Positions 7,841 through 64,000 of a stretch of DNA of 64,000 nucleotides are shown here, in pieces (position 1 is the stretch's first letter; each line of letters begins with the position of its first letter). This DNA comes from Marsupella aquatica. Lineage: Eukaryota; Plantae; Marchantiophyta. The notes beneath the pieces are model-generated. The model did no database searches. It was given only the letters and a program-made list of their open reading frames with translations, and had not been told where the DNA came from. Where the stretch lies: contig OZ316891.1 of the NCBI GenBank assembly GCA_973895155.1, positions 1,851,324 to 1,915,323 of the forward strand, read 5' to 3'. The translations under genes and the position numbers were made by a program.

Positions 7841-8573
7841 CCGAAATTACTAAATCTTTCATTGGAATATTAGATGCTATCAAGACTATTGATCCATATT
7901 CTCCCAACGCTCTTGAAAATCCCAGCGTTGTTCCCGTCAGTAATGACGGAATTAATGGTGGGAATAGAATATGCCAAAATGTTGTCCAAGATGATGCCCC
8001 TAAACATTGTGCAGCCTCCTCAGGTTCTTTCTCCATATTTTGGAGAACGGGTTGTATAGTACGTACAACAAAAGGCATAGATACAAAAATCATAGCTATA
8101 AGAACTCCCAATGGACCAAAAACTATTCTTATACCTAACAAAGAAAAAATAGGTTTTAACCATCCTTTATCACTAAATACAGTCATTAGAGTTAATCCAC
8201 CCACAGAAGTTGGAAGAGCAAATGGGAGATCTACAGTAGCATCTAAAAATTTCTTTCCGGGAAATTCATATCTTACTAAAACCCAAGCAAGTATTAGTCC
8301 AAATAATGCATTTATTATTGTTGCTGATAATGCGGTTAAGAATGTGAAGCTATAAACAAATAAAATTATGGGTTCCGTAGTAATTCGTAGTAGTGTATCC
8401 CAGGATTGTTGTTTAGTTGTGTATAACAAAATAGATATGGGCAAAACTAGTATGAAAATACCATAATGTAATGCTAAGGATAATACAACTTTGAATTTTG
8501 CTAGGAATCGTATTTTTCCCTTAGTAATTATAAATAGTATAAAGGGAGTGATAAAGAAAATTTGAATCATCAT
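7838..8573 (-). pseudogene. cysT: Plastid sulfate ABC transporter permease CysT, lacking its C-terminus at this position
   Basis: [28 protein letters not shown]...[12 protein letters not shown]...[26 protein letters not shown]. Confidence 0.93.
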
Positions 8574-8729
8574 TTTCTAATTGGCTGCAAAAAATGTAGT
8601 TAAACCTCTTTTTTTTTCCTTATCATATTATTTCCATCCGCAAATTCACGTTATAATTTATCCAATTTTAGAAGTATTGAATAAATGTAATTTCTGTGAA
8701 AAAACTTTAATTATATTTTACTATCTATA

Positions 8730-28087: not shown

Positions 28088-28968
28088 CAAAAGTTTACAA
28101 AGGTGGCAGGACTCCGCAGAGAAGGAGTTCAGTACCTGGCTCTCAACGCCTATCTGTGATCGATCCGCTATAAAAGTGCCCGATGTTTTGCCAGAAGTCC
28201 ATAGCGGAGTCCAACTAATACTGGGACTTATGCACGAACGCTTGGGTTAGGAATTCCACAGCTTTGTCGACCTTGAGCTTCTCAGCTTTCACGAGCAGGC
28301 TGACGAGATGTATAGCAAACTCAAGAGGACAGCCCTATTCGGCAGCGCGCGAAAAGCTGAGCAGGATCTAGTTTAATTTGCATCCGTAGCCTTGCATCTT
28401 GTATACATGAACACCAGAGAACTGCTCCCACACTGCTTGTTGTAGGGTGCCAAACCAAATTATGGTTTAGAGTATATATGGTTAAATGGTTAAATATGAT
28501 TAGTTCTCACAGTTAGAGCCGATTCTGATGTATTTTTTTATTGTCGGTATGAACACAAATGTTCGTGCCTGAGATGATCTCTGATCAATTCGCGTAGCCA
28601 TTTTTCATCGCTTGTTATGACACTGTATCCTTGACAATCTCATGTAACTATATAAGTGAATTACCATCCAGATACTAATAAGCTCAAACTTTTTTCCGTC
28701 CTGTTTGCTATTAATTGAATACAAAATTTAGATGTCTGCTTTTGAATATTTCTCATGGCTCAAATTGCATTGATGAAAAGGAGTGGGGTGGCCACCTTTC
28801 TTGTTCGGTTAATTATCATGTTAGAGGGGAAAACACTAAATTAATGCTCTATGGAATCCTTGTATTGCAACTCACTTTTGACTAAAGTTGATCAGGCGTT
28901 TAGAGGGAGACAAATTAAAACTGATGGGGTAAATCATGCTGTTGTTGCTTTTCATATATGCAAATGCA
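27806..28968 (+). repeat. Direct segmental duplication, copy 2 (partner 1-1197)
   Basis: Collinear with the start of the window. Confidence 0.9.
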
Positions 28969-33012: not shown

Positions 33013-36000
33013 TTAAAGTTTGAATCTGTTTTCAAAATATGTGCCAACTTGAGCAAAATTAGGGACACAATGAATCACTTTAGCAATGTTTGCTACCTCC
33101 ACAACAATATAAGGCACTTTGGATCTTTTGTAAAGTGCTTTTCTGCTTGTAGAGGCTGTCGTGCCTTCATCAACCCACTGGAGCTTTGTGCAGTGCAATA
33201 ACTTCCAATCTCCATCCCTTGGCAGCTTCTCCATCATTCTAACAAATGCTAGATGCTTCATGATCTTCTTGCCACCCTCATCAATGACTTCACAAGAAAT
33301 CAGCAACCTCAGTTGACCATAAGATGTTACAGGATCAATGCCAGCTTCTTCCATCTGAAGAGAGACGAATCCAAACCATTCTTTACCATGGAAACTTCTG
33401 CAGGCACGGGTGTACATTGGCCAATCTCCAAATCGAATGCCTTCCCCAGCAGGCACTGCTAAGCTTTTCCAAATTTGTATTATCTCAGGAACTGCACAGT
33501 TCTCATCATTCAAGTGCATAACAAAGGCTTCTCTCAGGTGCAGTTGTATTTCTGGTTGACACTGAAATAGTTCACTCACTTCTACAGGCACAAAGTCATT
33601 GTTACTTGCATCAAGCCAACTCAATGTCAACCTTATATCCTTTCCAGATAGGGTGATCTGTCCTGTCAATACAGCCTGCACATATCAAATCATAAAGCAC
33701 ATGCATAAGTGCCTACAAGACATCCTTTGTAAAGTGACATGTGTTGCTACACAGAAAGTACAAACTGAAAGTGTAGCAGAAGTGGGAGGGAGGTAAGGGG
33801 AATAGTACTCGGTCCAGTGCAGTAACATCTTCTGCGTGCACTCTTAAGTCTTCTTGATAGCTTGCTTCGTCTAGTAAAATTCTAGTCCTCTGGCTATGCC
33901 TTGCTATTTGCCCCATGAAATTCCTCTTGTTGCTATGTCTGTATGGAACCTTCATGAGGGCAATGTGAAGATGTTCGAATATACCTGTGTCATATTCTAA
34001 AGGCAACCCACATCGTTTGATACAATCTTTCAGGTGACTCATGGCATGGACTTTTACAATGTTGAAACTTGACTTCTGCCAAGTTTTAGCGTGTTTTATC
34101 ATCGATCCTACTGCTTTTTTCATTAACTGATCCATTTGATTCAAGGACCTCTCAGAATGTTGTTTACTCTGGAATGCTAGCAAATACCAATCTATGAAGT
34201 CCACAAAAACCTCAATGAGCGGATTTGGAATGACGCCAAGCAAACAAAATACCACAACCTGCATAACAAATTTATGCTCGAATCCATGAAAGTTAGCATT
34301 GCTTTGAAAGTAACCACTTTGGTTACTCCCAGGCAATCTAAAGGAAGCATAACGACATTCCTTGTGTATTTTCTGGAGTCTTCTATCAAGTTCTTGCATA
34401 GGTTTTTTCACAAGGCTCTGGGAAGCAGCAGCCGATCTCACAATGCCCACTAGAGTCTTGAATACACCTAGTATGGACTGATGAAGACCGTCTAATTGTA
34501 TGCATTGATAGGGATTTCCATACAGCAAATCACCTCCACAAAATCCCCATAGAGCACACTGCAAGACATCACAAGAAAAAAAATCACTCACAGTTGACAG
34601 AAAGAGAAGAATAACTGAACACATTCAAAACTCCCTTTGCACAATCAATGCTCATCTCAGTAAGAAGTGCTTACCTGTACTGGATAAATCGACTGCTCCT
34701 TAGACATCTGTTTCTGATCTTGCACAGAAGACTGTCGCATCTCTTCTAAGATTGCTTCCATTCCCTTCTCATCCCTGTAAGAAAATCTTCTTGCAACATT
34801 GCTGAGGGATTCTTTTGGACAGAAACAACAACTGCATGGATAATTTGACTTGTTTGTATCAAATGTGCATGTGATTCTACTCCCCTCTGTCTGGTCACAG
34901 ATATACAGACATAGTCTTGGAAAGACCCACTGGGATTGACCAAATGGGTCTTTCATGTGAACTCCTGTATGACTTGCCGCCTTCAATGGTGCCAAAACAA
35001 TCTCCTCACATTTGTGAAACAGTTCCAATTTGGCTGTACTAGGAACCTCTGTCTCCAATATACCTACAGCAAAGAAATTAGTGTAAGTATTTCAAAATGA
35101 ATATAAAGGTTGTAAGTGTTGGACTTTTTAACATCCTGGGAATATCTACACAGACAAAGAGCAGTCAAATTCAACTGGAGGGGAATAATTGCAGTTTAAA
35201 TCTCACCTGGATCATTCGGACCAATAACAGGAAGAATAGCCAGCAAAGCGTGACCTTCTGGCAAACTTCTAAGACTGCAATTAATATTGCCAATTGTCAT
35301 GACTAAAGGCCAACCCTGAGTTCTCTTGTTGTGAGACAAGGCAGTCTGATCAGAATACAAAATGATGGGTGCAATCACTCCTCCTTTGCAAGTAGATTCA
35401 ACGTCTTGCTCCATTTCCCTCCACCACTCAGCGGATTGCAAAGTAGTGTACAATCTCTCACTGCCCTTTATAGCAACTGAAGAGTGAAGTGCAAACTCTT
35501 CTTTATTTTTAGGAGAAGAAAATAGATCTTCCAAAACACGTAATGGATCACGATGCAACAAATGAACTGGAGCACTTTCAGTCTCCTCGCGGACTTCAAC
35601 CTTTTCCCAATTTTGGTCACCCCTCTCACTTGTTAAACTTTCCTCATATTTACAAACCTCAGCAGCAGTATGAACCTGGACTTTTTTGGTATCGAATTGA
35701 GGGTGGTGCAGCAGCCGAAATAATCTGTTCATATCTTTGTGAGATAATCCTCCTCCGTTGTGGCATTGTCTCATAAAGAAGACAAGTTGAAAAGTAACAT
35801 CAAATTTTTTATTACATTGGGCAGGAGATGTGAATTCATTCTCAAACAGGTCCATGAATTCCTCAGAGGACTGCTCTCCAACTGTCTCAACATTGGCCTG
35901 TATAGATTCCGGTATACATGTGTTCCCAACGTTTACACTCGTACGAAACCCTTCGTGCTCTGCCTCCATCACATGATCAGTCTGTTTAGCCCTTTGCACA

Positions 36001-36110
36001 GCTCTCTGTTTAGCTAAGCAAAGTCCATTTCGTCCTTGGTGGGTCCGCAAAGCTGTATAATCCAGAAATCCCAAAGCTCCACAAAAATTACACTTAAAGT
36101 TTGAAGCCAT
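33013..36110 (-). CDS. Plavaka-type (CACTA/Mirage/Chapaev-related) transposase, 4 exons, about 901 aa, apparently intact
   Basis: Exons 36110-35207, 35063-34675, 34558-33809 and 33675-33013, with GT-AG introns joining in frame (2706 nt). Motifs: N-terminal CxxC...H...C finger, PIILYSDQT, GWPLVMTIGNI, CDQTE, CSCC, DGLHQSILGVFK, FNIVKVHAMSH...FEHLHI..K.PYRHSNKRN. Confidence 0.82.
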
Positions 36111-38839
36111 CAAAAATCCTGTTGTCCCTACACAGTATAAAATCAATAGTGTATTAAAACCACTACTCTGCACATCGATACTTATTGTTGATTACATTCA
36201 TTTGAAGCTCATAAAATATTCATGGCTCTCTTTCACCAAGACTTCCTTTTTCTAAATTTCTTCTGACCTTCCACTATTGAGTAACTACTTTTGTTGAACT
36301 GAGAAACTGCTGCTGTTGAACTGAATACAAAATTGGAAATTTTTCAATGAATTACTTAGGGAGTCACCTTAAGTCACCTGATGATGCACCTGAGTCCGCG
36401 ATGTGACTAATTATAGACCAATCCTTTGGTTGCACTAATAAATCACATCACATACCCACCTTCTGATGTCCGCCTCTGCAGAAAAAGCAACGTCTATCTG
36501 TCACTAATTGAACAGTGTCATACATTGCACGGAAGCAAATTGGCCATCGGTATCATGCACGAGTGTTGTTCTCGCTGTTGTGTTGATGTAGTAGCGTTAC
36601 TTCTCGCTGTGCTCACTCTTTGGAAGCGCTCGTTGGATTAGTCAATTTGTTCGCACCTACAGTAGGACGCATAGTTATGTGCAATAGCATTGGTGCAGTA
36701 GCGGTGTCTCTCGCTGAGTATGCAGTAGCGTTACCTGTCATTGTGCTCACTATTTGGGAGCCCTCGTTTCATTCATCAATTCGTTCGCAACTGCAGGTTG
36801 TTAAAGCTCCGCGCAATCTGAGCTCTATTAAACACTCTGTCTTGTTCTCAAGTCGTTTGCAACCAGGTCAAAGCATTTTCGCAAGCTCCCGGAAATAAAT
36901 CTTAGCTATTCGACTACACGCTCTCTCGTTTTGTTCGCTACTACATCTAATTGAAGCATTCTATCAAGGCGAAGCACAAAAATCGGAACTCCCGGCTATC
37001 ATGGCAATTGAAAAAGGTAAGAATCTCGCCCGGTTTCTTCCCTATCCCGTGTGATTTCTCCCTGCGGACGGACGGACAACAATTTTGCCGTAGGATCTGA
37101 CGTCCGGCTCTTGCCCATAGCGTCTCCTTTTGACTTGGGCTCCTAGTCAGATACTTCATCTTGACCTCTCCTTGACGTGCTCTAACCTGTCATCGAGCTC
37201 CTAGAGAAAAAGGAGATATATCGATGTTCCAATTATAAGCAGCCCGTACCATGCAGTGGTCCACAAACTTGTGAAGAATTCAGGGAGTTTGCCACCAAAT
37301 TCGATCCACTTACCTTCACATTAAAATATTCTAAACCCTTTCCTAACCTTGTCTCTTCGTCGATTTTCACTCGACCGCTTGACTCGAGACCTGTGCAAAA
37401 TTGCAAACTGGAGCTCGGCCCTCCCGTAGCAACATTTCTCTCTCGCTTGCAGCTTCCGCATCCCTTGCACTCGAAAAGAATATTATTACTTATTGAACGC
37501 GCTTGCATCTCCTCGACCTCTCTTGCTTTGAGGGAAAGCCCTTTGCCACCCTAGTGAGAAAGAAATCTGCAGCATATATCCTCTGCTGGTACCGCTTGCA
37601 GTACCAGCATCTTGCATCTCCTCGACCTCTGCGCTTGCATCTCCTCGACCTCTGCCATACTTGTCGATTCCAAGTTCGGCGGCCGAAGGGAGACCGACTG
37701 GCACCACTCTAGGTCTGTCCGTTCCGTTCAGAATGCCGGAACCTCGATCTCATCACCTTGCTTGCAAAACCAAATGCAATGTCTGAGCAACCGCGAGTCA
37801 ACTCACTAGGTGAACCCGCCTGTGAGCAATGCCGGCACCTCTCACTCACTCCCTGGTATAAGATTTAGCAGGGATCTTCCTCTCAATCGGTTGCATCCCA
37901 CTACCCTGAGGACCCCGAAATATTGCTTCATCGCATAGACTCTCTCGTCGGGAATTGTCTCTCTTACCACTACCGTGCGGTACACTCTCGTCCATTCTCG
38001 TTACTGCCGCAAGCATCGCGTCACTCATTTCCTCCTTTCTATCGGACGTTCCGTGTCCTATGGATGTTGACAGTCAAGGGTTAAATTACCTGACGGCGAG
38101 GAGCCCATCGGATGCTAGAGTAGAGCATTGCATATTGGACACTCGTTGGCATTTTGGCGCAGGACTCCAGAGAATCCATCCATTCCATCATCCGCTCGCT
38201 CTCCTTTCTTTCGGTAGCCTTAAACCTGAGTGACCTTCGAATTCTAGAGGACTGTATCACTGCAAGACGGCTCTGACGCCCGCACTCCCTCCACCAGCAA
38301 GAGGTTAAAATTTTCCAAGCTAATACTAGACACCGCTAGTCTCGAAAAGTGTCATGTCTGCAACGTGAACTGTGCAGTCCAGCCGACCAATTTGTCCACT
38401 TCTGTGTCTCTATCGGTCTCTCTCCCTCTCTCCTCAGTCTATTTCCTTTCCTCGGAAGCTAGCTCGCATTGTCCAAGCCCCTCTCTTATTCGAAAGCGAG
38501 GCATCAAAGCCACCTACTTGGAGCTAGGGAGGGAGAGGGACTTGAACTGTAAGTGAATCAATCAACTAATCAATCAGTCCAATCAACATTCTGAAAGTGA
38601 GGATATTCACCTGCTACATTCCGTGATTCGTAGCTGAACAGGACTTAACGATGGCTGAAATCTTCTCTAGCTCTTACTCTCAATATCTTGTCTCAATATC
38701 TTCTCTACAATGCAGCATAGAGTAGTATTCAATAATGCCCTCTTTGCTAATATGGGATAATGCCTTCTAAAGAGGACTCACTTTGGTATACAAAAAGAAC
38801 TAAAAATCATACAAAGGCGCGAAAGACAAACGAGGACTA

Positions 38840-46725: not shown

Positions 46726-47400
46726 GTCGACGTGCTGCAATCATAGTAAAGTAAGAGCAAGAGATGTGTGGTAGAATGAGCTGCATGCACAACCCAATAA
46801 CTACTTCTTACCCATTATTAAGTCAATATTACTACATCATCTATATGCGATCTTTTTTTTGTTTAATACATGGACATATCGTAGCAATCTATTGTTAATT
46901 TTTAATGTCTACCGGATATCTAACTGACGTTGGTTCAAGTACATGAACATTACAATTAAGCCATGACATGTTTTTATGTAAAAGTTATGACTCATATATG
47001 TCAATGGGATATGCAATCCAATTTACATCATAATCACATACAACCAATATCAACTTAGCATATTAAGCAGTTTGATACAAAATGATTGTCCAGTACACTC
47101 ATAGAATTGACGAAGAAACCATGTACTAATCCACCTTATGTCAAATACATATACACCTCAGTTTCGTGATGTTGAATAAGTTCAAAGTATAGGACATGTC
47201 CATATACTTGGAAAAACCAATTGCTTTTTCACTAAGATCACCGGCACTCTATTTTTCTTTGGGATGACAATTCTAGATTGCTTTCATTTAGTTTGTACAG
47301 GTTTTCTTCACTTGATATGATGGTTTCACTTGATATAACTCTGTTTGTTTTCTTTCTTCCATATATTGTGCAGGCCTTGGGATTGCAAAACTTGGAAAAT

Positions 47401-49019
47401 ATGGTTCTTTCAAATGAGGAACTTGAAATCATTGTGTCAACAATTCTTGCGTTCCAACAAGTGGTAGAGCAGCAAATGCGATTTGCAGCTCTTGTTGGTA
47501 ACTATTTTTTGGAATCAGGTGATGGGAGACTCCTTGCAAACTTGTTTATACTCTTCCAAACCATTCAACATGCATTTTTCCAGAGACCAGATCGTCTTCT
47601 ATCTGACAATTATATCGAGCCCAGATCTAGAGAATGGAGTGGCTGGTACCTTATGCATGTTATCGAAGACGATCCTGTCCGCTTCAAGCATTTGTTCCGC
47701 GCTCGGGGGTCTCACTATATGGGGACCTCCCCATCACCTGCAACGTTTTTAGGCCTCGGACCCCCTAAAATGTAAGAAAAAATTATTATTTTTTAACCCC
47801 TATAAAGTTTAAATATTCTTGGAATATTCCAAAAATTTGATTAAAAAGGCCCAAATGTTCTTATAAGTCTCAAAATTGAATTTAAAAGACCCTATTGTTC
47901 TTCTACAAAAATTCTTAAGTCTTCCCTTACAACCAATAAAATGACCCTATCCTTCGTCGCATGTGATATGCCATTTTTGTGGAAGTGAAACCCCCAAGGT
48001 TCCGCGTGTCACCCGCAACATTCATGTACATTTGCGACTTGTTTCGAGAAGATTTGACTACACATCCCCCACCTGGCCTTCGCAATTTGACCAACAGGGC
48101 ATTGTCCGTTGAGCGACAAGTTGCCATAGTGCTGCGTAGATTTGCTACTGGGTGTTTGTTGTTGACACTTTCAGAGATGTTTGGGGTTTCAGTTCCATGC
48201 ATTTCTGATGTGATTTGGCGATTTGTTAAGGCATTAACAAGACGCGGTAGAGAAAGATATTTGAGTTGGCCGCAAGGAGAGGCCATGGCAAGGGTGAAAG
48301 AGGAATTTTTCCAATTGCAAGGATTTCCAAATTTTTGTGGTGCAATTGATGCTACTCATTTTCAAGTAAAGTTACCTCTTGGAACAAACTCAACTGATTA
48401 TCGTGACTACAAACATGGCCAAAGCATTTCAATGCAAGCCATTTGTGATAGTCGACTTTGATTTTTGGATGTCTTTGCAGGATGGCCTGGTAGCATTCAA
48501 GATTCACGACTTTTGAGAGTCTCAGGTTTTTATGACGACGTTTTGACACACCGCACAAAACTCTCTGGTCTCACATTTACAGCTTCGATAGGATTCACTA
48601 CAGGGGAGTATATTATTGGTGATGTTGGCTACCCTGCTTATCCTTGGTTGCTAAACCCTTTTCCAGCAACTAGAGAGCATAGTCAAAAGAGAGAGTTCAA
48701 CTACAGGCTTAGCTCAACTAGGATGTGTGTGGAGCGTGCTTTTGGTCAAGTGAAAAACAGTTGGAGATTTTTTTCTCGCAAAATGTTTCGGCCGCATCCA
48801 TAGCAATTGCCACATTATATTACATGTGCATGCCTTTTGCATAACATTCGTATTGACCGTGGAGATGTATATGATCCAGCATGGGGTATAGATGCAGACC
48901 CTCCATATGAACCTGGAGGTCCCCCTGCTGCACCTCAAACTTCAAATAATGGGCGTAGATATCGTATTGCAATGATGAATCATTTGCTAACTGAGGGAGA
49001 ATGGGGGCATGAAGCTTAG
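47401..49019 (+). pseudogene. PIF/Harbinger DDE transposase (HARBI1-like), disrupted by a MITE and two stops
   Basis: FRVSPATF, GAIDATH, DVFAGWPGSIQDSR, IIGDVGYP, RMCVERAFG, ACLLHN. In-frame TGA at 48459 and TAG at 48801. Confidence 0.92.
47702..47998. mobile_element. MITE, 8-bp TSD family, inside the Harbinger transposase
   Basis: TIRs ctcgggggtctcact / agtgaaacccccaag. Perfect TSD gttccgcg. Removing it restores LFRVSPATF. Confidence 0.92.
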
Positions 49020-49177
49020 AGTGTGCTACCCGAGTTGCCAATAGATGTAATAGACAAAGATGAAATTTAATAAAACCAAACTGTGCATGAAAATGGCACC
49101 ATATTTTATTCATGTGCAATTATATGTTGTCATTTCAAGAAGTACACTTGACTTTAGAAATGGAAGTAGTTGCTTCT

Positions 49178-50341
49178 CTAAACCAAGTATGTGCAACTAC
49201 TCCATTGGGATGGTCGTGAAGAATTTGCTAGCTTCTCTAGAAGAATGTCATTCAAACGTCCCATCTGCTCAGCTGTTGTGGTTGATGCTGTGGTGATTGC
49301 TGTTGCCAAAACAGCAGATTGCCGCTCACGGCTTTCACAATCAAGCTTGGCCATGGAAACCATCTCTGCACAACTATTGGCCATGGATTTCAAATGTGCT
49401 TGTTTGTCGTTCCCAATCTTGGCTACCTTTCGCTTTACACCTCTATTGTCGGGGCCAGAGAAGTCCTGAGGGGATGATGGTTGCTGCACTCCACCTGTAC
49501 TCTCTGTATTTGGTTGCGCCCTCTCATGTGTTGGTCCTGTGAAATGTGTCTGGCTTGATGGTGCCGACCTGTCTTCCTCAACCCCAACATCATCATCACT
49601 TGTAGAATAGTATAGACATGATTCCTTGCATTTAGTAGAGCAAAGAGGAAGGAGAGAAATGTCACCCCAAAAATTTACAGTACCAATCCACCATAACAAA
49701 AATTAAATTGCACAATGTAAATGAAAGAAAAAATTCATCAGGTAGGAAAAAATAGATTACTCACTTCCAGATGACAAGTTGAATGGGTCCTGGTTTGTAT
49801 TGTGGTTCATCCTAGAGTAATCAGATAAAAACTCCGTAGGTGGCGTGATGTGTGGAACATCTTTATACCATCCCAACAGATCTGCGTACAGATCAACTGA
49901 GAAATGAGTCGGGAATTGTTGTAGGCGTCGCTCCTTCTCATCCATGTCAAAGTAAGAAATCTTCCCGGTCTTCTCCTTTCTCTCATAATCGTAAATCTTT
50001 TTGAACTTGCTGTCAATGAGCTGCCACTTCTTCTTGCAAGAGGATGGATCTCGAATAGGTCGGGTGAACCCCTCATCCTCCATAAATTTTGCCACGGCTT
50101 TCCATTTCAACTTGGTGCTAGTCATCTTTTGTTGCGTAGAACCCTCCATGATAACATTGAGGTATTCAGATCGCTTGGCTGCAATCAAGCACTTCATCTC
50201 CTCATTTGTCCAATCAGGCAACTTATTCTTGACTGGAGGTTGTGGTGCACCGTTAGGACCTGTACCAATGTTGAGGTCCAAGTCAACTAATTGAATACGT
50301 TCTAGTGAAGGTAGACCACGACTCTGCTTCTGGCTCGTCAT
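49178..50341 (-). CDS. Harbinger ORF1: Myb/SANT (trihelix-like) DNA-binding protein, two exons, convergent with the transposase
   Basis: WTNEEMKCLIAAK...KWKAVAKFM...RDPSSCKKKWQLI...SYFDMDEKERR, followed by an acidic and coiled-coil 3' exon. The acceptor near 49600 looks mutated. Confidence 0.82.
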
Positions 50342-52054
50342 TTGACATTACAGAGTAGCACTACTCCATATTTGTCGTTTTTGCGAAGGTCAATTACAAG
50401 GGGATAAACACACCGCGAAGCGCCGTTCATCGCTCATCTTGCGATGCAAACCGCATCTCAAACTGCAACACTGACACTCTCGCAACCATTATTTGCGAAA
50501 CCAACATCTTCGCAAATATTTGCAAAACCAAATATCTTGCAAAATGTTTCTGAACCTTTGAGCATTCTACTTAGTAGCGATGTTTACCGTTTTGCAAACA
50601 ACTTGCGACGCCGATTGCATCGATAACGTTGCAATATTTCTGTTATCAGAAAGCGGCGTGCGATGCAAAATTAATCGCAATACAGCGAAAGTAAGAGAAT
50701 CGCCAGTTTGCGAGGTGGTGTGGCTCGCAAAATCATGGCGCCTCAGTGGTTCTCTTTAGAGAAGGCTTGAGTTTCGGAAAGTTGAGATGCGCGTTGCTTC
50801 GGAATGTAGCGATGGTTTTGGGATGGGATCTAGCGATGAGGTAGGGATCGTTAATGTAGCCATTAGGTTGAGATGGGTGGGGGTTCGCAAAATGGTTCGG
50901 AAATTTGGTTTTGGGGTTTCTCAGATTTAGAAAGGGCATGGGACAAGGAATGGAGGAAGGAGGGTCAAGGAGAGAGGAGGGAGGAGGGAGGAGGTACACT
51001 TTAGGAAGAAAAGGAGGAGGAAGGGGTTGACTTAAGGGGGGACAAGGAACAAAGGGAGGAGGGCGGTTTAGGGTGCACAAGGAAATGAGGGAGGAGGGAG
51101 GTACCTACAGTTTAGGGAGGGAAAAGGAAAGGAGGGAGGAGGGAGGGAGGGTGGAAGGTATAGGTTTAGGAGAGGGACAAGCCAAGGAGGGAGGAGCATA
51201 GGTTGAGGACAGTGAAAGGTGGAAAAAATTGAGGGCATGTATAGGTTTTAAAAAGGAAGGGGTTGAGACAAGGGGAGGAGGGAGGTGGGTACAAGTACTA
51301 GAGAGAAACACTACAACACTATCGGCCGGTTTTGCAAAGACAATCTCATCGCAACTAACAAGCCCCTGATTTTCATAATTCTGGCCATTGCGATCATACG
51401 CGCATCGCACCACCTTTGCACTTTGCCAACCTAATAACTTCGCACGCGGACCATTGCAACGACATCGCAACACCATGGCAAACTGCGAAGCTGAGAGGTT
51501 CGCAAGATTCAATACTTGTGCGATCCATTATACGTCGCATAAGGTTCGCAAACATACACGCACACGTCCCGCGCAGGCGTCGATATTTGAGAAGGATTTA
51601 CCATCGCATCATATTTGCGAAAGATACTGGTTCAATTGTTTTGATGGGGATTGTATGACAAAGAGCGATACCGGTGATTTCAGAAGTTTGTGAACGGGTT
51701 CGATTAGGAAAGTTCGATCCTAGAAGTATCACAAAAACCCGACATATTTGGATCTGAAGTTCTGAAGTTAATTGACTCAAAAAGTGCGATGGCTTGGGGT
51801 TTATATTGTGCGATGGGAATGAGTTCTTAAAGGGTTCGCAAAATTATGATCACAGACATTATTTGCGAGGGGTTTTCCTTGGGACCCAATGTGGAAGGCA
51901 AAATTGTTGTTTTATAAAATGGAAAAGCATGAACAAAATGATAGGGCTTCAAAGAACCCTATACATGGACAAGAGGGGGGAAATGTCTGATGCTAGGCCC
52001 TTCTAAACCTATGCTGCCTCTTCCTACCCTAAGCTCCGGCATGACAAGTCACTC

Positions 52055-54116
52055 TCATGCATGTATCTCTACAAAATAACTAGAATGGGCTCTTGCGGCT
52101 CCTCTTGGTTGGCTTCTTGGCTGGCTTCTTGCCCTTATTCTTCCGGGGATCCTGTTGGTGACGGGTGCGTGATGGCCGTCGGCGCTCCTGCTCCTGTTGC
52201 TCCTCTGGCTCCTCCTGCCCCTCCTGCTCCTCCTCCTCATCCTCAGGGTCCTCCTTCTCCCCCTGGTCATCAACGTGTGCTGATGACACACGACTACCAC
52301 CACTACCACGGTGGGAAGAACCTACCTCATGACTACTCCCCCCCGAGCACCACTAGTACCAGGAGTAGCCCCCTCATCGTCATCACTACTGCTCACATCA
52401 GCACCCGACCCCTCAGGCTCATCCAAATCTTGCATCCATTACATATCATTAGTTTCCGCAAGACATAAAGGGTCACTCACAACGTTCGCATGCTAATCAT
52501 ATGGTTCACACTTAGACACTTATAGTAGCCAACTCGGCATCTACCATCGCAAAGAGGTACTTTCATCCATGCTCTATCGCCACCTCAATATGCTTTTTTG
52601 ATATCTTCCTTATGTACCTCCGATACTGCCATGCATAAAACCAATTAAAATTGGTTAAATTTGCCCTTAAGCATACCCTATAGCCACAAGTGACGCCTAA
52701 ATCCTCAACTACTAAACACGACCCAAAAAAAATTTAAAATTCAAATTTGTGAACTTATAAGCATGGCAACTTGCGAACCACATTTTTTGCGAAGGCGTTG
52801 CGATGGAGTTTGCGATGCGCATTTGTTTGCAAAGGCATCAGAAAATTGAAATGGAAAAAGTCCATGATAGAATTTGCGAGGGGTTTGCGAACAAATGCGC
52901 ATCGCAACACCTTCGCAAACTGTGTTCCCGAGAGTTTTGAAAAATTTGCCAAAAATTCTAAGTGTCAGAGTTGCCCTAAACTAGTAACCAAGCAAGCATG
53001 CACAACAGCAAGAACATTTGGGGATGTCATTCACTTGCATTGCACAACTCTAAAAGGAATAGAAAGGTTAGGGAGGAGCAAGAGGCACTCACAAAGTGTG
53101 ACTTGAGGCCGAGGAGCCCGCCTTGACCCAACTTGTGGACTGGATTGGGGGTGGATTTCACTCGTTTGGCTGCATCTGTGAAACGCTTGGGTGGCTTTCC
53201 CTCCTGGTCGGCCACCTTCTGCATCTCAGCTACCTTCTGCTCAAGTGGCTTCAGGTTGTGGTCAAGGGGGAGCTTCTCGGCCTCCTTTGCTTTCAAGGCT
53301 CGATCTAGATTTCCCTTCCACTCTTCCAACTCGTGAGCTGCCTTAATTTGCACCTCAATCTTGTAAAACGAATTCCAGATGTCCTCGGTGAAGTGGAGGG
53401 GTCTGCGCAAGTTCCTGTATGATCTCAAGTCTTTCAGGTGGGCTCTAATCTTCATCCTGTCATGGTATCGCATTTGAGACATAGAATTTGAAATCTTATC
53501 TGCCAACCATTGCTCATCTATGTCAGGCCCATTGCAAAATGCATCCTTGATTTGGTTGATGACCCTCTTTCGCTCTGCCTTCTCAATCTTCCCCCACTGC
53601 ATGCCTCGTGAGAAATTGCTTGTGATAATCTGCTTGATTGTGCTCTTAGCCCCTGCATACGCTAGCTCAGTTGGAGTCCCACTTGTCTCCAAGGCAATGA
53701 ATGGAAGTTTTTTCTTGCTTCCTCTTTCTGACGTTGCTCCTCCCTCTGTTTTCGAATTGAATCTCTCTCCTCTCTTCTCTTCTGCTTCTCTAGGGCTTGA
53801 GGAGAGGCAACTCCCGACTTAGTTCTTTCCTCTCTCTTCCTTTTTTTCTCTCTAGCCTTATCTTCAGCTGCGGCCCTCTCCTCCCCCTCTTAGTAGCTTG
53901 TCCTGCTACAATCCCAGTTTGCAAAACCTGTCCAAGAATGGCACTCAAAGAGGCAAGCCCTGTTGGAGAATTGAGATTCACTTCTCCCAATTGTGCAGCA
54001 CTGAGATGTTGGGCCACTAAGTCTGCCCAGGCATTCTTCTCTTTCTCTGGATTTCCCCCATTGCCACTACCACTACCACTACCACCTTGCCCTCCACTCC
54101 CCTCACCGGTAGCCAT
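52055..54116 (-). pseudogene. CACTA ORF2 (TnpA / Ptta-En/Spm-like), divergent from the transposase, frameshifted and internally incomplete
   Basis: MATGEGSGG...; W......R helical region; P..FTEDIW..F; HKLGQGG motif followed by donor ttt|gtgagt near 53092; acidic and basic tail at 52055-52330. Confidence 0.6.
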
Positions 54117-54599
54117 AGCTCCCCTCTCTCACAGTCTCCCTCGTACTGTCGCGTGCGCTCCGGCCCTTCTCGTCTCGCTCAAAAACTGAAATGAGCCCGA
54201 ATGCGAGCTCTCGCCGATGTTTACGCTGTTCAAAAACGGGTATGTGATGACATACGCATGGGAAACTGCGAAGCCCGCGCCCTCGCAAATAGTCTCGCAA
54301 CTTGCAAGGCACTTCCGAATCTATTCCCTTCGCAAGGCCATCGCAACCAGCAAAAGACTCAAAAAATCGTTCTCGGACTCTGTTTTTGCGAAGTAAGTGT
54401 GAAGGCCGTAGGTTCGCAAAAAGATTCTCTAACTTGTGAAATAATTTGCGAGGCAGGTCTTATCGGTTTAGGGTTGGAAAACACTTTGGGGTGTCAAACG
54501 GCTATTAAGGTTTGTCAAACGACATTTAAGGTATGTTAAGTTCCCGTAAGTTAACATGGAAGGGGTGGCAATGGATGTTTGGGTTGTAAGGATACCTCG

Positions 54600-55400
54600 A
54601 ATATAAGTTAACAAAGGTTTGAGTTTAATTAAAGGTTAGGTTTATATTTGGTTTTAATCTAGGAGTATTTGGTTTAATTAAGGGGGTTAGAACTTGGGTT
54701 AGGTTGGAATAAAAGGGTTGGGTTTAAATTAATGGGTTTGGCTTAGGGTTCAAGGTAGAGGTTTGCATTAGGTTGTGAGTAATTACAGGGGTTGGGTTTG
54801 GTTTTAGTTGAGGGGTTGAATTGTGGTTGTTTTTGAAAGGGATTGGGTTTGGTTTTTAGTTGGGGGGTTTAATTGTGGTTTTTTTAAAGGGGTTGGGTTT
54901 CTAATGTAAGTGTTTGGGTTGGGGTGTAACATGATATAGGGTTGGATTTGGTTCTAATTGAGGGGGTACAATTTTTGCTTAAGTTTTAAAAAAGGGCCTC
55001 AATTTAGGGGTTAGGGTGAAGTTTAGAATAACTATAGGGGTGGGGGTTGGCCTATATAGGTAAAGTAAGGTGTAGATACTAGGGTAAGGGTTTTATATGT
55101 AATTGGGGGATTTGGGTTGGGTTTAGGGTAAAGGTTTGAATTTTTAATGAGGGATTTGGGTATTGGTTAGGATAAGGGTAAGGGTTTAGGGTGATTGAGG
55201 GATTTGGGTTAGGTTTTAATGAAGTGTTTCATTTCATGGTTTGGGTTTAGGGTAGGGGTTTAGGGTAAAGGTTTGAATTTTTAATGAGGGATTTGGGTAT
55301 TGGTTAGGGTGAGGGTAAGGGTTTAGGGTGATTGAGGGATTTGGGTTAGGTTTTAATGAAGGTTTCATTTCATGGTTTGAGTTTAGGGTAGGGTTTGGGT
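54600..55400. repeat. Degenerate telomere-like (TTTAGGG / GGGTT) tract with a tandem duplication of about 137 bp
   Basis: Strongly G/T-skewed, with many gggtttaggg. 55119-55255 is repeated at 55256-55390. Confidence 0.8.
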
Positions 55401-55836
55401 TACTTATATTTCTTTCTCTATCTCATTAACATGGAGTGGAAAACTCTTTGGCGTTGTAGGGCACTTCCCCATGTTTTTTAAAGTTTTGGCTAATGCATGA
55501 TAATGCCTTGCGAGAGCCCGGGCATCTGAAAGGTATAACGTTTTCTCACGCATTTCTAGTCATTGCTGTAAATATGGAGGGTTACAATCTATCATCCTTT
55601 TTTTCTGGTTCACCATAAGGCATGGCTTAATTCATTGTATATTGGCAGATTTTCCCCTCCTTCCAGATTTGGTTCATGAAATTTGAGCCACAAGATCCGT
55701 CAAGGCATTGCTAAGCCCGAGTCTCATAAAGGTATTTTTCTGTCAATTCTTTTTAATATGTTTGGGTAGGGATTATCAATGATGGTTTTGGTGAAGTTTT
55801 TACTAATCGCCTTCCAATTGCTATATACTTGTCAGA

Positions 55837-56073
55837 TGTCTTCATCCTCTACAACTTCCACCACATCAGATTCCTCTTCCGATGAAGAAAGTCGTCCTCC
55901 TCGATCCTCAGCCTGAACCAACCGTACGTCGACCTAGTGGTCCACCACGCCAACTTTGTGGTTGTAAAAAATGTGTGGGGATGGTTGTCCAAAAGTCATA
56001 TGTATGTGCGGAGCACATTGCTCGATATGGCCAACATCGAGGTCTTACACCGAGAGCTTCTTCATCCCGTATG
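55837..56073 (+). CDS. First coding exon: transposase-associated Zn-binding domain (one frameshift near 55900)
   Basis: CGCKKC...YVCAEHIARYG fits the CxCxxC...HLxxxG pattern at CACTA transposase N-termini. Ends ATG|GTGAGT (phase-0 donor at 56074). Confidence 0.7.
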
Positions 56074-56185
56074 GTGAGTTGTAAACTTACTGTGATTTCC
56101 ATTTTATTTTGTAAATCTTGCTAGGTAGCATAAAATAAAATTTGGGAGGTTCATCACACTCACTTGGTTCCATTTCTTCCTATAG

Positions 56186-57008
56186 GTATCCAGTAGGCCT
56201 ACACCCACTACACCAACACCCTATGTTCCCTCACAAGGAGTTCTAGATGCTATAGGCTCGGCACTTTCACAAGCTTTTCGTTTAGTGGCAGCAGGGCAAG
56301 GTAGTGTTGGGACAATTCAGGGTGACGGTATTGGTACAAGAGGGAAAAAAAGTCAAAAAGACAGCCTAGAGGGGAAGTGGATCAGTACACTTGTAGGGTT
56401 GTTGATGGTAGATGGGGCCCTTGTACCTTCACAAGGAAGTGTGTTCCTATCTTAAAGGATTGGAATCCGGTCCGGAGTGCCTTGGTTTGCCATGTGATAT
56501 AACCTATGGTGAGGAGATAGAAGTTTGGGGAAGACGTTGGGTTGTCAAGAGTTTGACCCTAGGGGAGAGGCATGGGTATGGGATTTTCTCTTGTCAGGAC
56601 ATTATTGTGGATGATATGGGTGGAAAAGGGCGCTCTTCGGATGGACCAACGTTGTTCCCGTATGGTGGACCCATTTACAAGAGGAGACATTGGAACATGA
56701 TCCTTGTTCAACACCCTGAGTGGAAGACTTATGCATTGGACATGGATACTTTTGATGGTTGCACCAGAAAGTATTGTGACCAGCGTATAATTGATGGTGA
56801 TCCCATCCGTAGTGGGAATATTGCCGGTTTCATCAACAGTACTGTGGGGACCCAGCCTAAGCGTAGGAAAAACTGTGAATGGGTTTTTGTTGATGGTCCC
56901 CCTCCAGCCCCTTATGGGCAGAGATATCATCATGACCATTGTCTAGTTGTAGCTAATAGGACCATTCTGGCTGGAGAGGAGTTGTTTACACATTATGAAT
57001 GGGATTAA
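56186..57008 (+). CDS. SET-domain (lysine methyltransferase-like) exon; SET core open in 56412-57008, upstream linker with about two frameshifts
   Basis: Ordered SET motifs: VVKS....HGYGIFSCQDI, PYGGPI, YALD, IDGD..SGNIAGFINST, NC, LVVANRTILAGEELFTHY. Acceptor ttcttcctatag ends at 56185. Confidence 0.82.
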
Positions 57009-57977
57009 GATTACTTTAGGGACATGTATTATACGTTCATCGTATGTGAACGTATGTTTTGTAATGACATGTTCTTTTTATATTGTTAATAATATGTTTC
57101 GAGCACTACTATATTTGGAGTTAATTTCATTGTGAATGCTTTATTGTATTGTCTATAGTTCAATGTGCGGCCTAGTCAAGATATGTTGCCAAGGAGGTTG
57201 AGAGCTACATATCAAGAAATGGGCTTGCCACAAGACGGGGAAACATCATCAGCAGATTCCTCATCAAGGGACAATGATAATGACAGTCCAGATGAAGGGG
57301 CACCTTGGACAGATTATGAGGTCATGCAAGACGAAGAGTCAGCCATGGATGACTTCATGACAGATTGGTTTGGTGTAGACATTGGTGGTGAAGGAGGTGT
57401 CCCACCCAATGAAGGAGATCCTCCACCAAATGTTGCACATGATCCAAGGCCTCAACGTACACCTGAAGGACAAAAACAATGGGAAGAAGCTGCTCAGGCA
57501 CATGCTAGAACACCTATTTATGGGGGTGCTCGTTTGAATAGACTATCTGCCATCTTGGCATTGATGAATCTTCAGGCAAAACACAAGGCAAGCAATGCGC
57601 TACTATCGGATTTGTTTGCAATTTGCCATGATCTCTTGTTACCCAGTGAAAATGTTTGCCAGGAACTTGGAAGGAGGCAAAGAGGGTTCTATCATCCATT
57701 GGCATGGAATACCATATCATTCATGCTTGTGTGAATGACTGCATTCTCTATCATGAGACCAATGCCAGTGCAACTGAGTGTCCAATTTGTCAAGAGCCTC
57801 GATATGAAACCAACATGTTGACCTCAAAGGTGCCTAGAAAAGCTGTTCGTTGGTTTCCTATTATTCCTCGATTGTTGCACATGTACCGATGTTTTGACTT
57901 GGCAGAATTGATGGTATGGCATAAGACACATCGATCAGAGGCTGGTGTCATGCGGTTGCCAGTTGATTCCCCTGCTC

Positions 57978-58180
57978 CCCTGGGCCCTCACTCCGTGTAA
58001 AAGAAGTTGACCCCCCTGCGATCGGCCCCTTTTCGTGTTTACCCCTTGTTATTTCCATTTTACCATTAAAAGTTCTCTTATTATCGATAATAATTATAAT
58101 TATTAGTTCAAAATGAATAAAAACTACCCTTGGAGTGTTCGCACGTCTTGCATGTATTAGTTAAGACTGAGGGCCTAGGG
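57978..58180. mobile_element. MITE, 8-bp TSD
   Basis: TIRs ccctgggccctca / tgagggcctaggg. TSD ccctgctc / ccctactc. Removing it restores PVDSPAHKHVESQWP. Confidence 0.88.
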
Positions 58181-60385
58181 CCCTACTCACAAGCATGTGG
58201 AGTCACAATGGCCAGAGTTTGCACGTGACCCTCGTCATGTGAGGTTGGGGTTGGCATCAGATGGGGTGAGCCCACACTCCCTTGGAGGGAAAGGGCGCCC
58301 TACTTCGGTTTGGACGGTGGTTTTTATGAATTACAACCTTCCCCCATGGTTGTCCATGAAAAAAGGATTCTTATTGCTATCATTGATTATCCCAGGTCCA
58401 TCTAAGGTAAAAAACATGGACACCTACTTGGCGCTCTTGGTTGGGGAACTTCATAAATTATGGGGGGGTGTATGGGCATATGATGGTCGGACAACTACAG
58501 GAGGGTTACCACGTGTCTTCCAATTGAAGGGAATCATTATGTGGACCATGCATGACTATCCAGGTGAGTGGTATGGATTTGTATTTTTTTCATGTATTGG
58601 AGATCAAGTTTGTCTGGAAGGAAGTCCCTCTTTAATTCTATGTACATGAACTTTTCAATTCCTTTGACTCTCATGAGAATGTTATTTTGTAAGCAGGGTT
58701 TGGGTTTGTTTCTGGGTTCCAAACTCAAGGGTACAAGGCATGCTCCACTTGTGGTCCAAGCCTTCACGATATGGCCAAGTACTCAAAATGGCTGCACAAG
58801 ATAATCTACCTTGGTCATACCAAGTTTCTTCCACTTGGGCATCACATGAGGTCTGACCCCCTTTTGTTTTCAGACTTTGACATGATCAATGGTGATGAGC
58901 GTGAGATACCTGACCGCACAAAATTTTCGTATTGGAAATCCATAGCTGATAGGGTGGCAGACCCTGAAGATGCCATGGGATTTGATGGTAGTGGATTGAT
59001 AAGGTGGAGTATACTGGCCACTTTGCCCTATTGGCCTGAGTTGAAGATTCATCACTTGTTAGACCCCATGCATATAGAGGGAAATGTTGGGAAGGCTTTG
59101 ATCAAGCACTTTTATGGGGAAAAGAACATTAATTTTAGGGAGGCATGCCAGGATCTAGAACGACATCCAGATGTATGGATAACAGTTGATGAATCCACAG
59201 GGATGGAACATCGTCCTTCAGCTCCATGGGTTTTGAGTGTTGGTGAAAGAAGAGAGTTTCGACAATGCATAGGGCAGATGCGGTTTCCTACAGGCTATGG
59301 TGCCAATCTACGTAAGGCTTTTGGGATGGAGGACAGTCATAAATGACCAATGTATCTCAAGACACATGACTATCATCGTTTACTACAACATATACTTCCT
59401 GTGGCAATCATAGGTTTGGGGAGTGAAGAAGTGCAAGACACCCTTTGGTCACTGGGCACTTTGTTGAGATGGATATGCTCAAAGGAAATATATGAAGAAG
59501 AGATACCACGGATGGAGGTATTAGCAGAAGAGGTGGTATGCAAGTTGGAGAAGGCCCTCCCTCCTTCCTTCTTTGATTGTCAGGTGCATCTTCTCGTTCA
59601 TCTTGTGAGGGAGGTTGCCATTGCCGGTCCGGTGCATTGTAGGTGGATGTATTGGTTGGAAAGGTACATGGCCCAGTGTTAAAGGCTTATGTACGGAACC
59701 ATGCACGAGTGGAGGGGAGCATGGAAAATGGATACTTGGCAGCTGAGAGTATGTTTTATTGTAGTAACATCTTAGCTACCATTGATCCTAGTTGTCCATG
59801 CACTTGGATGGAAGAGAGGGAAGTGGAGGAGGACCATTTAACAGGTGCAAAAAAAACACGCTTACTAACCGCAGTGGAGTTGACACAAGTTAGTACTTTC
59901 ATGTTGAGTAACAACAATGTGATGGAAGATTGGAGAGAGTTTTATGAGGATGCAAAGAGGGAGAGTCGTCGCCCAAGAATCTTTCCAAAGTTCCTTGAGT
60001 ATATGAAGGAGAAAGTACTTCAGTTGGATGCTATGGTGGCCCAAGGTGAGAATGTATCACATTTTCCAGATATGACTCCTGAGGTTCGAACAATTGTTCA
60101 TGGTCCTTTAAGACTTGTTCAGACCAGAACAGCAATGTGGACACAAGGGAGGCATTTCAGGATTTCTGACCTTGATGAGAAGAGGGGAAGAACTTTTGAT
60201 TGTGGAGTTCAAGGGCAGTTCATGCAAGATTCACAAAGTAGCCGTCATGACACTAATGTGATCAGAGATGTGGTGCCTCACTATGGGAAGATTGAAGAGA
60301 TCTTGATCATATCCTATGATGCCGATTCCAGATTTGAAGAATATGCCTTCAAGTGTAAGTGGTTCAAAATTCACCTGGTTTGTGA

Positions 60386-60684
60386 CCCTGGGGAATCACT
60401 CGTTGGATTATTAGAACGGGGTGCGAACAAATGAAGGTTCTTTTTAATCTTGTTGGTGTAATAATTATAATCAAAAATTTGTACTAACTTAGGCGTTTAA
60501 AAATCCAATTTTGGTAAAAATATTAGTTTTTATATTCAGCAAGGTATTTAAAAATTTGTCAAAGCCATATAATCAAGGGTACAAGGGTATTTTTAATTGA
60601 ATTTATTTTTTCATTTATTTTTTCAAATTTCATTGGTTTGTTCTCACTTGTTTTAGGGGTTTTACTCTAAGTGATTCCCTAGGG
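60386..60684. mobile_element. MITE, 8-bp TSD
   Basis: TIRs ccctggggaatcact / agtgattccctaggg. TSD gtttgtga / gttggtga. Interrupts the transposase after CKWFKIHL. Confidence 0.88.
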
Positions 60685-61982
60685 GTTGGTGATAATCGCA
60701 CGGTACTTCTTGATGAGTGTGGGTTTACTCGACTGAAGACATCATCAACTAGCTTTCAACCATCTCATTGGCAAACATCTGAACCATTTACATTCCCAAG
60801 TCACCTTGAGCAGTGTTTCTATATTCCGTACTCACCAGACCCAGAGTGGTCAGTTGTTATACCGTATGTGCCACGGTCCCGTTCCATTATCTCGGAAAAA
60901 CCTGACGTTATTATTGTGTCAAATGGAGGAGAGGATGAGGACCAGGTTTGATGCACTAGTAGTAAAACTTGTTGTGGGCCCAGAATTTGACCCTAAACTA
61001 ACTATCATGGTTTTATTTATATTAACATATTAATTTTCTTCTTTTGTTTTACAAACACTTAATTGGACTTTGAAATTTCATCTCACTGTTATATATGCAA
61101 CCCTAGCCATTTCCAAAGCTATCCTCATGCATGCCACCTTTTTGAAAACCCTAGCTGTAACCTAAACACATGCATTCTCCATCTTGTAAAGAAACTCTCT
61201 CAAACATTTCCATTCTACAAACTTTTCAAACAACTCTCTTTGCAAAACATTTTCAAGCTTGTCAAGAAGCAACTTCTGAACACTTTGTGAATAACACACC
61301 ATCGGTAATTGTGATGCCAATGGGTTCTCAACTTTGCGAATCAACTGGCTTTGGTAACTTGCAACTATTTATACTTCACAATATTGTGCGAAGCTAATAG
61401 GTTCACAAGATATATTTGAGTACATTATTATCACTAAATTATGAAACAAAAGAGATCCAAATGCAGTCGCGATGGTCACGGATCCACAAATACTTTGTGA
61501 GACAAATAGTATCTGAAAGAGTTGCGAATTCAATCCGATCTCAAACAAATTGCGAGGTATTTAGCTTCGCAACACTATGTTGCAAACCTTTGAGCATGGT
61601 TTATTGTGATGCGTGTTTGATCACAAAATATCTGAAGTCGATGACATCGCAAGACCATCCCGGCGTTAAAAAAAAGCTTCGCAAAAGGGGCCAATATGTA
61701 GTAGTGAAAGGCTAGGGGGTGGGAGAAGGAAAGCTACGAGGAGGAATGACTACAAGCGACATGAGTTTTCTTTTCATAAAGTGTACCAAAAGGTGTGGGA
61801 GTGTACATAGGACTGTGGGGATGGAAGATGTAAAAAAGCCACATTTAAAATTGATATACTTACAAGATTGATTTGGGCAAGTTACATAAATTTATTAATA
61901 ATTTAGAAACACATATTTCTCCAACCAAGAAGAGAGATCCTCATGTTCAAATCTAACTGTATATCCACATAACATATACCCC

Positions 61983-64000
61983 TCAAACTTGGTCCTCATC
62001 CTCTTCAGGTTGGGACACAACCAAAATATCTGGTTTTTCCCCAACAACTGAACGAGATCGTGGCACATATGTGATGACAAGTGACCATTCCTCTGGGTTT
62101 GGGGGGTATGGAATATAGAAACATTATTCCACATGACTTGGAAAAGTGAACGTCTTCGATGTTTGCCAATGAGATGGCTGGAAACTAGTGGCAGATATCT
62201 TTAGCGGTGTAAATCCACACTCATCTTGAAGCACGGTAGGACTGTTACCTGCAAGGGTCACTTTGAACCACTTGCACTTGAAGACATACTCTTCAAACTT
62301 TGATTGTGCATCATAAGAGATCACTAGGATCTCCTCTATCTTTCCATAATGTGGCACAACATCTCAAATAATATTTGTGTCATGGCGACTGTTGCGGGAA
62401 TCTTGAGAGAATTGTCCTTGAACTCCATAATCAAAGGTACGACCCCTCTTCTCATCAAGGGAAGAAACCCTAAAATCCACCAAACCATAAGGACATGTTA
62501 CAAAAATAGGCATAAACATATAACAATTAATATCACATGCCAAAAAATTATCTCTTCAATATATGTGGGTGTATTACACATAAATTAAAATCACCATAGA
62601 TGAAAGGTTACTAAGGTACTTGGAAATAACCTGAAATGTCTCCCTTGTGTCTACATTGCCGTCCTTGTTGTAACCATTCTCAAGGGACCATGAACAATGG
62701 TACGGACATCATCTATGATAGCTGGAAAATGTAATAGATTCTCTCCCCTCGCTACCATGTCATCCACCTCAACCAACTTCTCCTTCATGTAGTCATGGTA
62801 CTTTGGAAAGATCCTTGGTCTTCTACTGGTACTTTTGGCATCCTCATAGAAATCCCTCCATTCTTCCATGATAGTGCTGTTACTCAACATGAATGTGGTT
62901 AGTTGTTTCAACTCCACTGGTGTCAACATGCGGGTTTTGATAGCACCTGTTAAACGATCCTCCTCATCTTCCCTCTCCTCTACCCAAGTACGGGGAGAGG
63001 TACGATCAATTGTGGCCAATATGTTACTGCAATAGAACATACTCTCTGCTGCCAAGTATCCTGTAGCCATGCTTCCCTCAACCTGTGCCTGGTTACGTAC
63101 ATAACCCTTTAATACTGCCATGTACCGTTCCAACCAATACATCCACCGACAATGCACAGGACTAGCAATGGCCACCTCATGAACAAGATGAACAAGTAAA
63201 TGCACTTGGCAATCAAAAAAGGAAGGGCCTTTTCTAACTTGCATACCACCTCTGCTGCCAGTACCTCCATTCCCGGGATCTCTTCATAGTATATCTCCTT
63301 AGAACATGTACCCATCTCAATAGTTTTCCCAATGACCAAATGGCAGATCTTGCACTTCTGAACTTGCCAAACCTATTATGGCCGCGGGCAATATATGTTG
63401 CAATAACTGATGATAGTCATGCGTCTTGAGATACATTGGCCACTTATGATTGTCCTCCATCCCAAAGGCCTTCCGGAGATTGGCACCATAACCAGTAGGA
63501 AACCGCATGCCTCCTATGCGATTCCTAAACTCCCTTCTCTGGCCAACAGGAAGCACCCATGGGGCTGAAGGTCGATGTTCTATCCCTGTGATAGGATCAA
63601 TTGTGACCCATACATCTGGATGCATCTCAAGATCCTCATAAGCCTCCCTAAAGTTAGTGTCCTTTTCTCCACAGAAAGCCTTTATCAAAGCCTTTCCCAC
63701 ATTTCCCTCAATGTGCATGGGGTCTAATAGATGGCGGATCTTCAACTCTCCCCAATAAGGCAAAGTGGTTAATATACTCCATCTAGTCAACCTGCTACCC
63801 TCAAATTGCATGGGATCCTCCGGGTTTGCCACTCTATCAGCCAAGTCTTTCCAATGTGCAAAAGTTGTTGGCTCTGGTATATCACGTTCATCACCAAAGG
63901 CCATATCAATGGAGGAAAATAGTAGTGGGTCAAACCTCATCTGATGGCCCATTGGCAGAAACTTTGTATGCCCAAGATAAACAATCTTGTGAAGGTGTGA
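61983..64000 (-). pseudogene. Second CACTA transposase (3' half), related to the inner one
   Basis: LDPMHIEGNVGKALIK, RFPTGYGANLRKAF, LKTHDYH, SPVHCRWMYWLERYM, HYGKIEEI...FKCKWFK. Frameshifts and stops; intron 62470-62630. Confidence 0.93.

Follow-up and report, generated by a model that had tools for sequence, protein, structure and literature searches.

In maize En/Spm and the Arabidopsis elements EN/SPM3 and EN/SPM7, all of them CACTA transposons, TnpA and TnpD are made by alternative splicing (PMC13547354, 10.64898/2026.08.24.746577). SET domains, for their part, are known as transposon cargo: the red-algal Plavaka element PAG2, a member of the EnSpm superfamily, has a SET domain for which chromatin modulation is proposed (10.1101/2025.02.11.637652), SET genes are carried by HarbingerS and MuDR elements of Phytophthora and by Helitrons (PMC12730594, Bostrychia preprint), and in SETMAR (Metnase) the SET and transposase coding sequences lie side by side (PMC8704517). 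Other transposon-encoded factors, among them VANC of the VANDAL elements and the TET/JBP cargo of fungal elements, have been proposed or shown to counter silencing, and bryophytes are described as marking their transposons with H3K9 methylation as well as H3K27me3 (PMC11982613). In the literature surveyed, the function of transposon-carried SET genes appears untested. SET cargo and En/Spm-type alternative splicing are each known; we have not found the combination in print, and a search whose scope left out Repbase, subscription journals and supplements returned no description of a bryophyte SET-bearing CACTA element or of the shared exon.

The 64,000-nt stretch of Marsupella aquatica DNA analysed here (the window) contains a decayed CACTA element in which a SET exon sits between a finger exon and the transposase exons. 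This SET-exon design is real, conserved and old. We consider it fairly probable that, in the working family, one pre-mRNA is spliced to either a finger-SET or a finger-transposase product by choice of acceptor, with the SET protein a predicted lysine methyltransferase acting on the element's own chromatin.

The element and its setting

The termini of the element follow the CACTA...TAGTG pattern (CACTACAAC at 51309, GTAGTAGTG at 61706), although the inverted repeats are imperfect past the first 6 nt, and a 3-bp duplication, AAA, flanks both ends. Subterminal motifs of the TTCGCA type reach 5-6 per kb near both ends versus 0-1 in the coding regions, with clusters at 51-52, 54 and 61 kb. The transposase is of the Tnp2 type expected for CACTA/En-Spm, matching PF02992 (E 3e-35) and DUF4218 (E 2e-20), with a weak match to DUF4216, and its gene is broken in the window copy. 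That copy is dead, and neither finger-SET nor transposase can be made from it. Its features are collected in Table 1.

Table 1. Features of the SET-bearing element, in order of position in the window
Feature	Position	Strand	Remarks
CACTA/En-Spm element	51309..61706	+	10,398 bp; imperfect TIRs CACTACAAC.../...GTAGTAGTG; TSD AAA
Divergent broken ORF	52050..54128	-	TnpA/ORF2-like by position only; left bound approximate
Degenerate TTTAGGG-like tract	54500..55400	+	Between divergent genes; repeat families D5, D11, D16
Probable leader exon, conserved 3' end	55514..55532	+	Donor AAAG/GTATAA at 55533
Probable second leader exon	55667..55731	+	Acceptor 55666 or 55648; donor AAAG/GTAT at 55732
Finger exon	55836..56073	+	Ser/acidic leader and CxCxxC-x13-H finger; phase-0 end; frameshifted in window copy
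Intron to acceptor 1	56074..56185	+	112 nt, GTGAGT...CTATAG; 111 nt, same place and phase in L001
SET exon	56186..57008	+	Own stop; two frameshifts in window copy, near 56344 and 56466
Gap	57009..57158	+	150 nt, U-rich, 72% AT, three TGTA, one AATAAT; ends at acceptor 2
Tnp2 transposase exons	57159..60951	+	Broken: frameshifts, stop 59344-59346, two MITE-like inserts; intron about 58564-58696

The SET-bearing element appears to be nested inside an older, related CACTA element on the minus strand, which it interrupts (50359-51308 and 61707-64000). We make this call because of the target-site duplication and the termini, the continuity of the outer element across the insertion having given short matches only. 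The older element has a terminus at 50359 and a minus-strand transposase at 61980-64000 with about 78% DNA identity, its 5' part lying outside the window. Within the SET-bearing element, none of the four pieces of the divergent minus-strand ORF that were scanned gave a Pfam match, and the TTTAGGG-like tract is the probable promoter region.

The window holds further insertions. The two MITE-like inserts in the transposase gene (57978-58180 and 60386-60684) have inverted ends of 15-16 nt, both starting CCCT(G/A)GG, and joints in the run contigs introduced below skip both. A Harbinger-like element at 47236-50347 comprises DDE_Tnp_4 pieces and a Myb/SANT ORF, and a Plavaka transposase (PF18759) lies on the minus strand at 33013-36191. 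An ARIADNE-like RBR ligase at 26280-28087, read in two long overlapping frames with no evident introns, is perhaps a retrocopy, and a portion of 27868-28893 is duplicated at 66-1097. At 7528-8576 there is a plastid-derived insert with ccsA-like and cysT-like pieces; the cysT transporter gene is retained in liverworts.

Two acceptors behind one finger exon

A sequence-only reading of the window had proposed that the finger exon ends at a phase-0 donor facing two in-phase acceptors, one leading to SET and the other to the transposase, and its coordinates hold. The donor GTGAGT starts at 56074, directly after a complete ATG codon (...CGT ATG), and the two CTATAG acceptors end at 56185 and 57158, both opening phase-0 frames, which translate as VSSRPTP from 56186 and as FNVRPSQD from 57159. 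The SET exon does lie between the finger exon and the second acceptor, with its own stop at 57006-57008.

Two acceptors in phase would arise by chance in about one of nine single copies. The arrangement goes beyond chance because the donor, its phase and both acceptors recur in a diverged copy, the metagenome locus L001, at a dS near saturation. At the same donor position L001 has its shorter intron, followed by an uninterrupted SET exon of 262 aa, a stop and a gap of 219 nt that runs to the second acceptor, ...TCATAG/AAT, six bases past which the sequence ends. In the window copy the three bases after acceptor 2 (at 57159, in frame) are absent from the contigs of all four runs considered here; this first codon is private to the window copy, and the family junction is therefore AG/AAT, as in L001. 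Related loci were found in two of 36 metagenome stretches (L001 and L002, the latter left out at 39% identity over 48 aa), in none of 45 viral-contig stretches and in none of 38 from prokaryote genomes.

L001 also retains the two probable leader exons (289-314 and 414-499), matching the window at 24 of 26 nt for the first, donor included, and at 76% over 89 nt for the second. The latter holds an upstream ATG at 55676, in the same place in both copies and opening 12 codons in the window and 8 in L001, which could possibly act as a translational brake.

The intact form of the family can be read from contigs of four runs from two studies. These cover all 30 bins, and the introns with them; the type of the runs is unrecorded, and one run may be the window's own source, so that the contigs do not count as independent support. 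Their majority indels fall near 55901, 56344, 56398 and 56466 (four bases near 55901 are absent in three of the four runs), and with them both exons become multiples of three, giving a stop-free finger-SET frame of 349 aa. It aligns with the Calypogeia gene model P0048 at 224 of 342 residues identical (65%), and the junction in P0048, M/VSSRP, falls in the same place as in the window. The two predicted junctions do not appear in the 15 joints, of 77, that are listed for the run contigs, which has no bearing on splicing. A joint at 58565-58694 in the X1 and X3 contigs skips approximately the length of the transposase intron and could come from an intronless or a diverged relative.

When the window is compared with L001, dN/dS comes to 0.13 both over 44 codons of the finger and over 161 codons of SET, as against 0.14 for two transposase copies in the window; the comparison with L001 is a single pair at a dS of 1.2-1.4, near saturation. 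Judged by this codon comparison, the SET domain is under purifying selection.

The finger exon begins with an ATG at 55836, right after an AG and out of frame with CGCKKC in the window copy. The finger is a putative Zn binder by its invariant Cys/Cys/Cys/His, and a search of the Atlas with it gave no usable match. Against PF13963, the transposase-associated domain, the window finger aligns at positions 36-65 (E 0.003, below the cut-off), and 6 of 18 finger proteins match the C-terminal half of that domain (positions 31-65 of 74) at 13-18 bits versus a cut-off of 27.7. When the residue after the end of the finger exon is read in 13 short read-through ORFs, picked from finger-only profile hits after exclusion of two that were frameshifted and two that were gene models, it is Val (GTN) in ten, Val one column earlier in two and Ile in one. 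A GTN codon following an exon end is a donor read in frame.

The proposed choice of acceptor has fared differently in its two halves. The finger-SET join is well supported, because of the P0048 junction, the intron and phase in L001, the lack of an in-frame Met before motif I in the window SET exon (the first Met is residue 142, motif I being at 127) and a protein, P0096, that is a single 423-aa ORF call with finger and SET on a 2.1-kb Logan contig. A second Logan call, P0114, runs straight on through the intron, so the single frame of P0096 probably reflects a spliced or intronless sequence and not a join made by prediction. The finger-transposase join, which none of the fetched proteins displays directly, is likely on indirect grounds. 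We therefore regard splicing to acceptor 1 as very probably real, as judged from these comparisons, and splicing to acceptor 2 as likely to be.

It could be argued that finger-transposase is the sole real product, SET being intron cargo that is rarely expressed or begins at its own Met, and the finger-SET models artefacts. Sphagnum and two Calypogeia models do have a Met four residues past the start of the SET exon (L001 has one a few codons in), and many database entries begin at a Met near that point. Yet in the window family motif I is not preceded by any Met in the SET exon, and the window, L001 and P0048 all have acceptor 1 in phase. P0096, moreover, carries finger and SET in a single frame, and calls from its source, P0114 for one, run on through introns. 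SET also shows purifying selection. We hold this account to be quite improbable.

Splicing to acceptor 2 is favored by the conserved phase-0 acceptor, the short 150-nt gap before it and the sub-threshold likeness of the finger to PF13963. The gap probably holds the 3' end signals of the SET transcript, as its composition suggests. The competing account is that of two separate genes, in which the finger would belong to SET alone and the transposase would be translated from a transcript of its own, or from one processed in another way, beginning at the Met that precedes LPRRL. The transposase could start independently at this Met, which the window and Sphagnum share a short way into the transposase exon; in addition, Arabidopsis En/Spm families alternate between splicing and split genes, according to PMC13547354. 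Proteins also lend this account something. Among the 251 that we fetched, 56 bear the finger (32 continuing into SET-exon sequence, 24 finger-only) and none of the 56 joins it directly to transposase, nor does any of the 68 candidates that came up when long finger-bearing proteins were sought, although these zero counts weigh little, the sample being redundant and drawn with SET-rich queries. On the other side, a mere 150-219 nt of U-rich sequence separates the SET stop from a conserved phase-0 acceptor, the finger resembles a transposase-associated domain, and acceptor 2 needs an upstream donor, the last 150 nt of the window SET exon containing no consensus donor. Two separate genes thus seem improbable to us, and the shared finger exon remains our preferred reading.

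A three-part chain, finger-SET-transposase, which would resemble SETMAR and be made via a donor late in the SET exon, would account for some gene models. Ten of these models run on from SET into transposase sequence, three of them entering at the same GFDPPE acceptor and two of these from the same place; L001 has GCAG/GTGAT where one model, P0085, leaves SET. But the bridges leave SET at differing places, nine of the ten lack a complete ELxxY motif, no more than a few residues follow the catalytic Tyr in most SET proteins, and the window copy has no such donor. This chain is the least probable of the accounts considered here; we take the ten models for joins that gene prediction made across decayed copies, though there is a small chance that they record a real minor form.

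The SET domain and its distribution

The window SET matches PF00856 at E 3.8e-6 and 27.7 bits, above the curated cut-off of 22.4. A homolog 75% identical to it, P0004, gave a predicted model with a pLDDT of 94.6 and a SET fold; this model was built on a deeper alignment, and the full-length finger-SET model (pLDDT 39) was left out. Compared with known SET structures, the P0004 model scores Z 10.9-12.0 (rmsd 2.3-2.8 over 123-134 residues), and although ctPRC2 stands at Z 12.0 (rmsd 2.6 over 133 residues), many SETs are tied and no subfamily is ahead, with PRC2, COMPASS, SET7/9, SET8, NSD2 and LegAS4 all in the same range. Identity to known SET classes is 16-28%, again with no class standing out, and Pfam scans for the pre- and post-SET domains of the host classes E(z), ASH1, TRX, ATXR5/6, SUV39 and SMYD found none. 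From these matches the element SET seems not to derive from capture of a host class. Sequence searches of the PDB gave matches with A4 and none with P0048 or A3. A viral origin of SET is not claimed, as the giant-virus and haptophyte Atlas neighbours and the viral folds are no closer than cellular SETs.

The GxG motif, the Asn of the SAM site and the catalytic Tyr have established roles in SET lysine methyltransferases. Across the clade the second Gly of GxG is kept in 75 of 76 sequences, the Asn in 68 of 76 and the last Tyr in 61 of 63, while the His of the NH motif is replaced by Ser in 72 of 76. The same His is missing (YINF) from LegAS4, which is the best match both by sequence profile and by Foldseek and is reported to methylate H3K14 (10.64898/2026.05.29.728679). 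Because LegAS4 also lacks it, the missing His weighs more against filing the domain in a canonical subfamily than against activity. It should be noted that splicing could proceed as described with a SET that is catalytically dead or directed at non-histone targets, for example the element's own proteins; the replaced His and the lack of a host subfamily that stands out speak for this, while the reported activity of LegAS4 and the retention of Gly, Asn and Tyr across the clade speak against it, and we consider it a somewhat unlikely outcome. The conserved residues suggest that the enzyme is probably active. Its substrate is not readable from the structure and sequence matches, and we consider a histone substrate slightly more likely than not.

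A profile search of 1.84 billion proteins gave 128 matches only, those named being from Sphagnum, Calypogeia fissa and Riccia sorocarpa. Finger and SET stand together in proteins, most of them gene models, from more than one deep branch: those of Sphagnum and Calypogeia, two clades of Riccia, and P0096. Near-identical intact models exist in Sphagnum. Among the fetched proteins, 7 of 251 have transposase sequence directly after SET. In a tree that is midpoint-rooted and has few named rows, the window SET and a protein of Calypogeia fissa form one group (support 99/89), which, like the cysT-like piece of the plastid insert, points to a liverwort as the probable host. Given this rooting and the few named rows, we make no claim of horizontal transfer between mosses and liverworts. 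A distant member of the SET clade in Calypogeia fissa (P0163, P0222; 503 aa) has a different Cys/His-rich N-terminus and possibly is domesticated or belongs to another element.

The SET clade is under purifying selection across one moss genus and two liverwort genera. One practical consequence is that hundreds of Sphagnum entries named 'SET domain-containing protein' (a cluster of 360 members) probably belong to transposons and make SET genes seem more numerous than they are.

A proposed splice switch and its relation to known systems

We can present the following proposal for the working element. One transcript starting in the 54.5-55.4 kb tract would pass through two leader exons and then the finger exon. 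By the first route it would be spliced to the acceptor at 56185, run to the stop at 57008 and be 3'-end processed in the 150-nt gap, giving a product of about 349 aa; by the second, the same donor would skip 1,085 nt to the acceptor at 57158, and the transposase would gain an N-terminal finger. With TnpA and VANC as the analogues, the SET product would then most likely mark the chromatin of the element against silencing. That the finger brings the enzyme to the element, or to its transpososome as the sequence-only reading also allowed, is a tentative suggestion. It is conceivable, if doubtful, that the whole represents an old, bryophyte-wide CACTA clade in which a splice switch alternates between moving and self-marking, with the finger aiming a non-host SET that lays down an anti-silencing histone mark. 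If true, land plants would harbour a histone writer that is encoded by a transposon and targets that same transposon, and if the finger is shared, the family would offer a direct handle on the role of the transposase-associated finger.

Of the described systems, En/Spm is the most alike: a CACTA element in which one transcription unit is spliced, as is likely here too, to give either the transposase or another protein, which regulates the chromatin state of the element there and is proposed to do so here. In En/Spm, however, that other protein is TnpA, which binds DNA and has its coding sequence downstream. In the present element it is a predicted SET enzyme, encoded within the first coding intron, and the ORF that is TnpA-like by position is on the other strand, in a head-to-head layout unlike that of maize En/Spm. 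The available description of PAG2 has an accessory gene with an N6-adenine methylase domain and does not mention an exon shared with the transposase. The SET cargo of HarbingerS, MuDR and Helitrons belongs to other superfamilies and other hosts, and exon sharing is likewise not mentioned in the accessible text of those sources. SETMAR is a domesticated host fusion of SET and mariner in one chain, whereas the present family is mobile and under selection, and its SET has its own stop. VANC and TET/JBP act on DNA methylation and have no SET domain. The splice choice proposed here would give an element its own chromatin-marking enzyme, and a histone writer encoded by the element itself would add a further, new way of countering silencing to those of VANC and TnpA.
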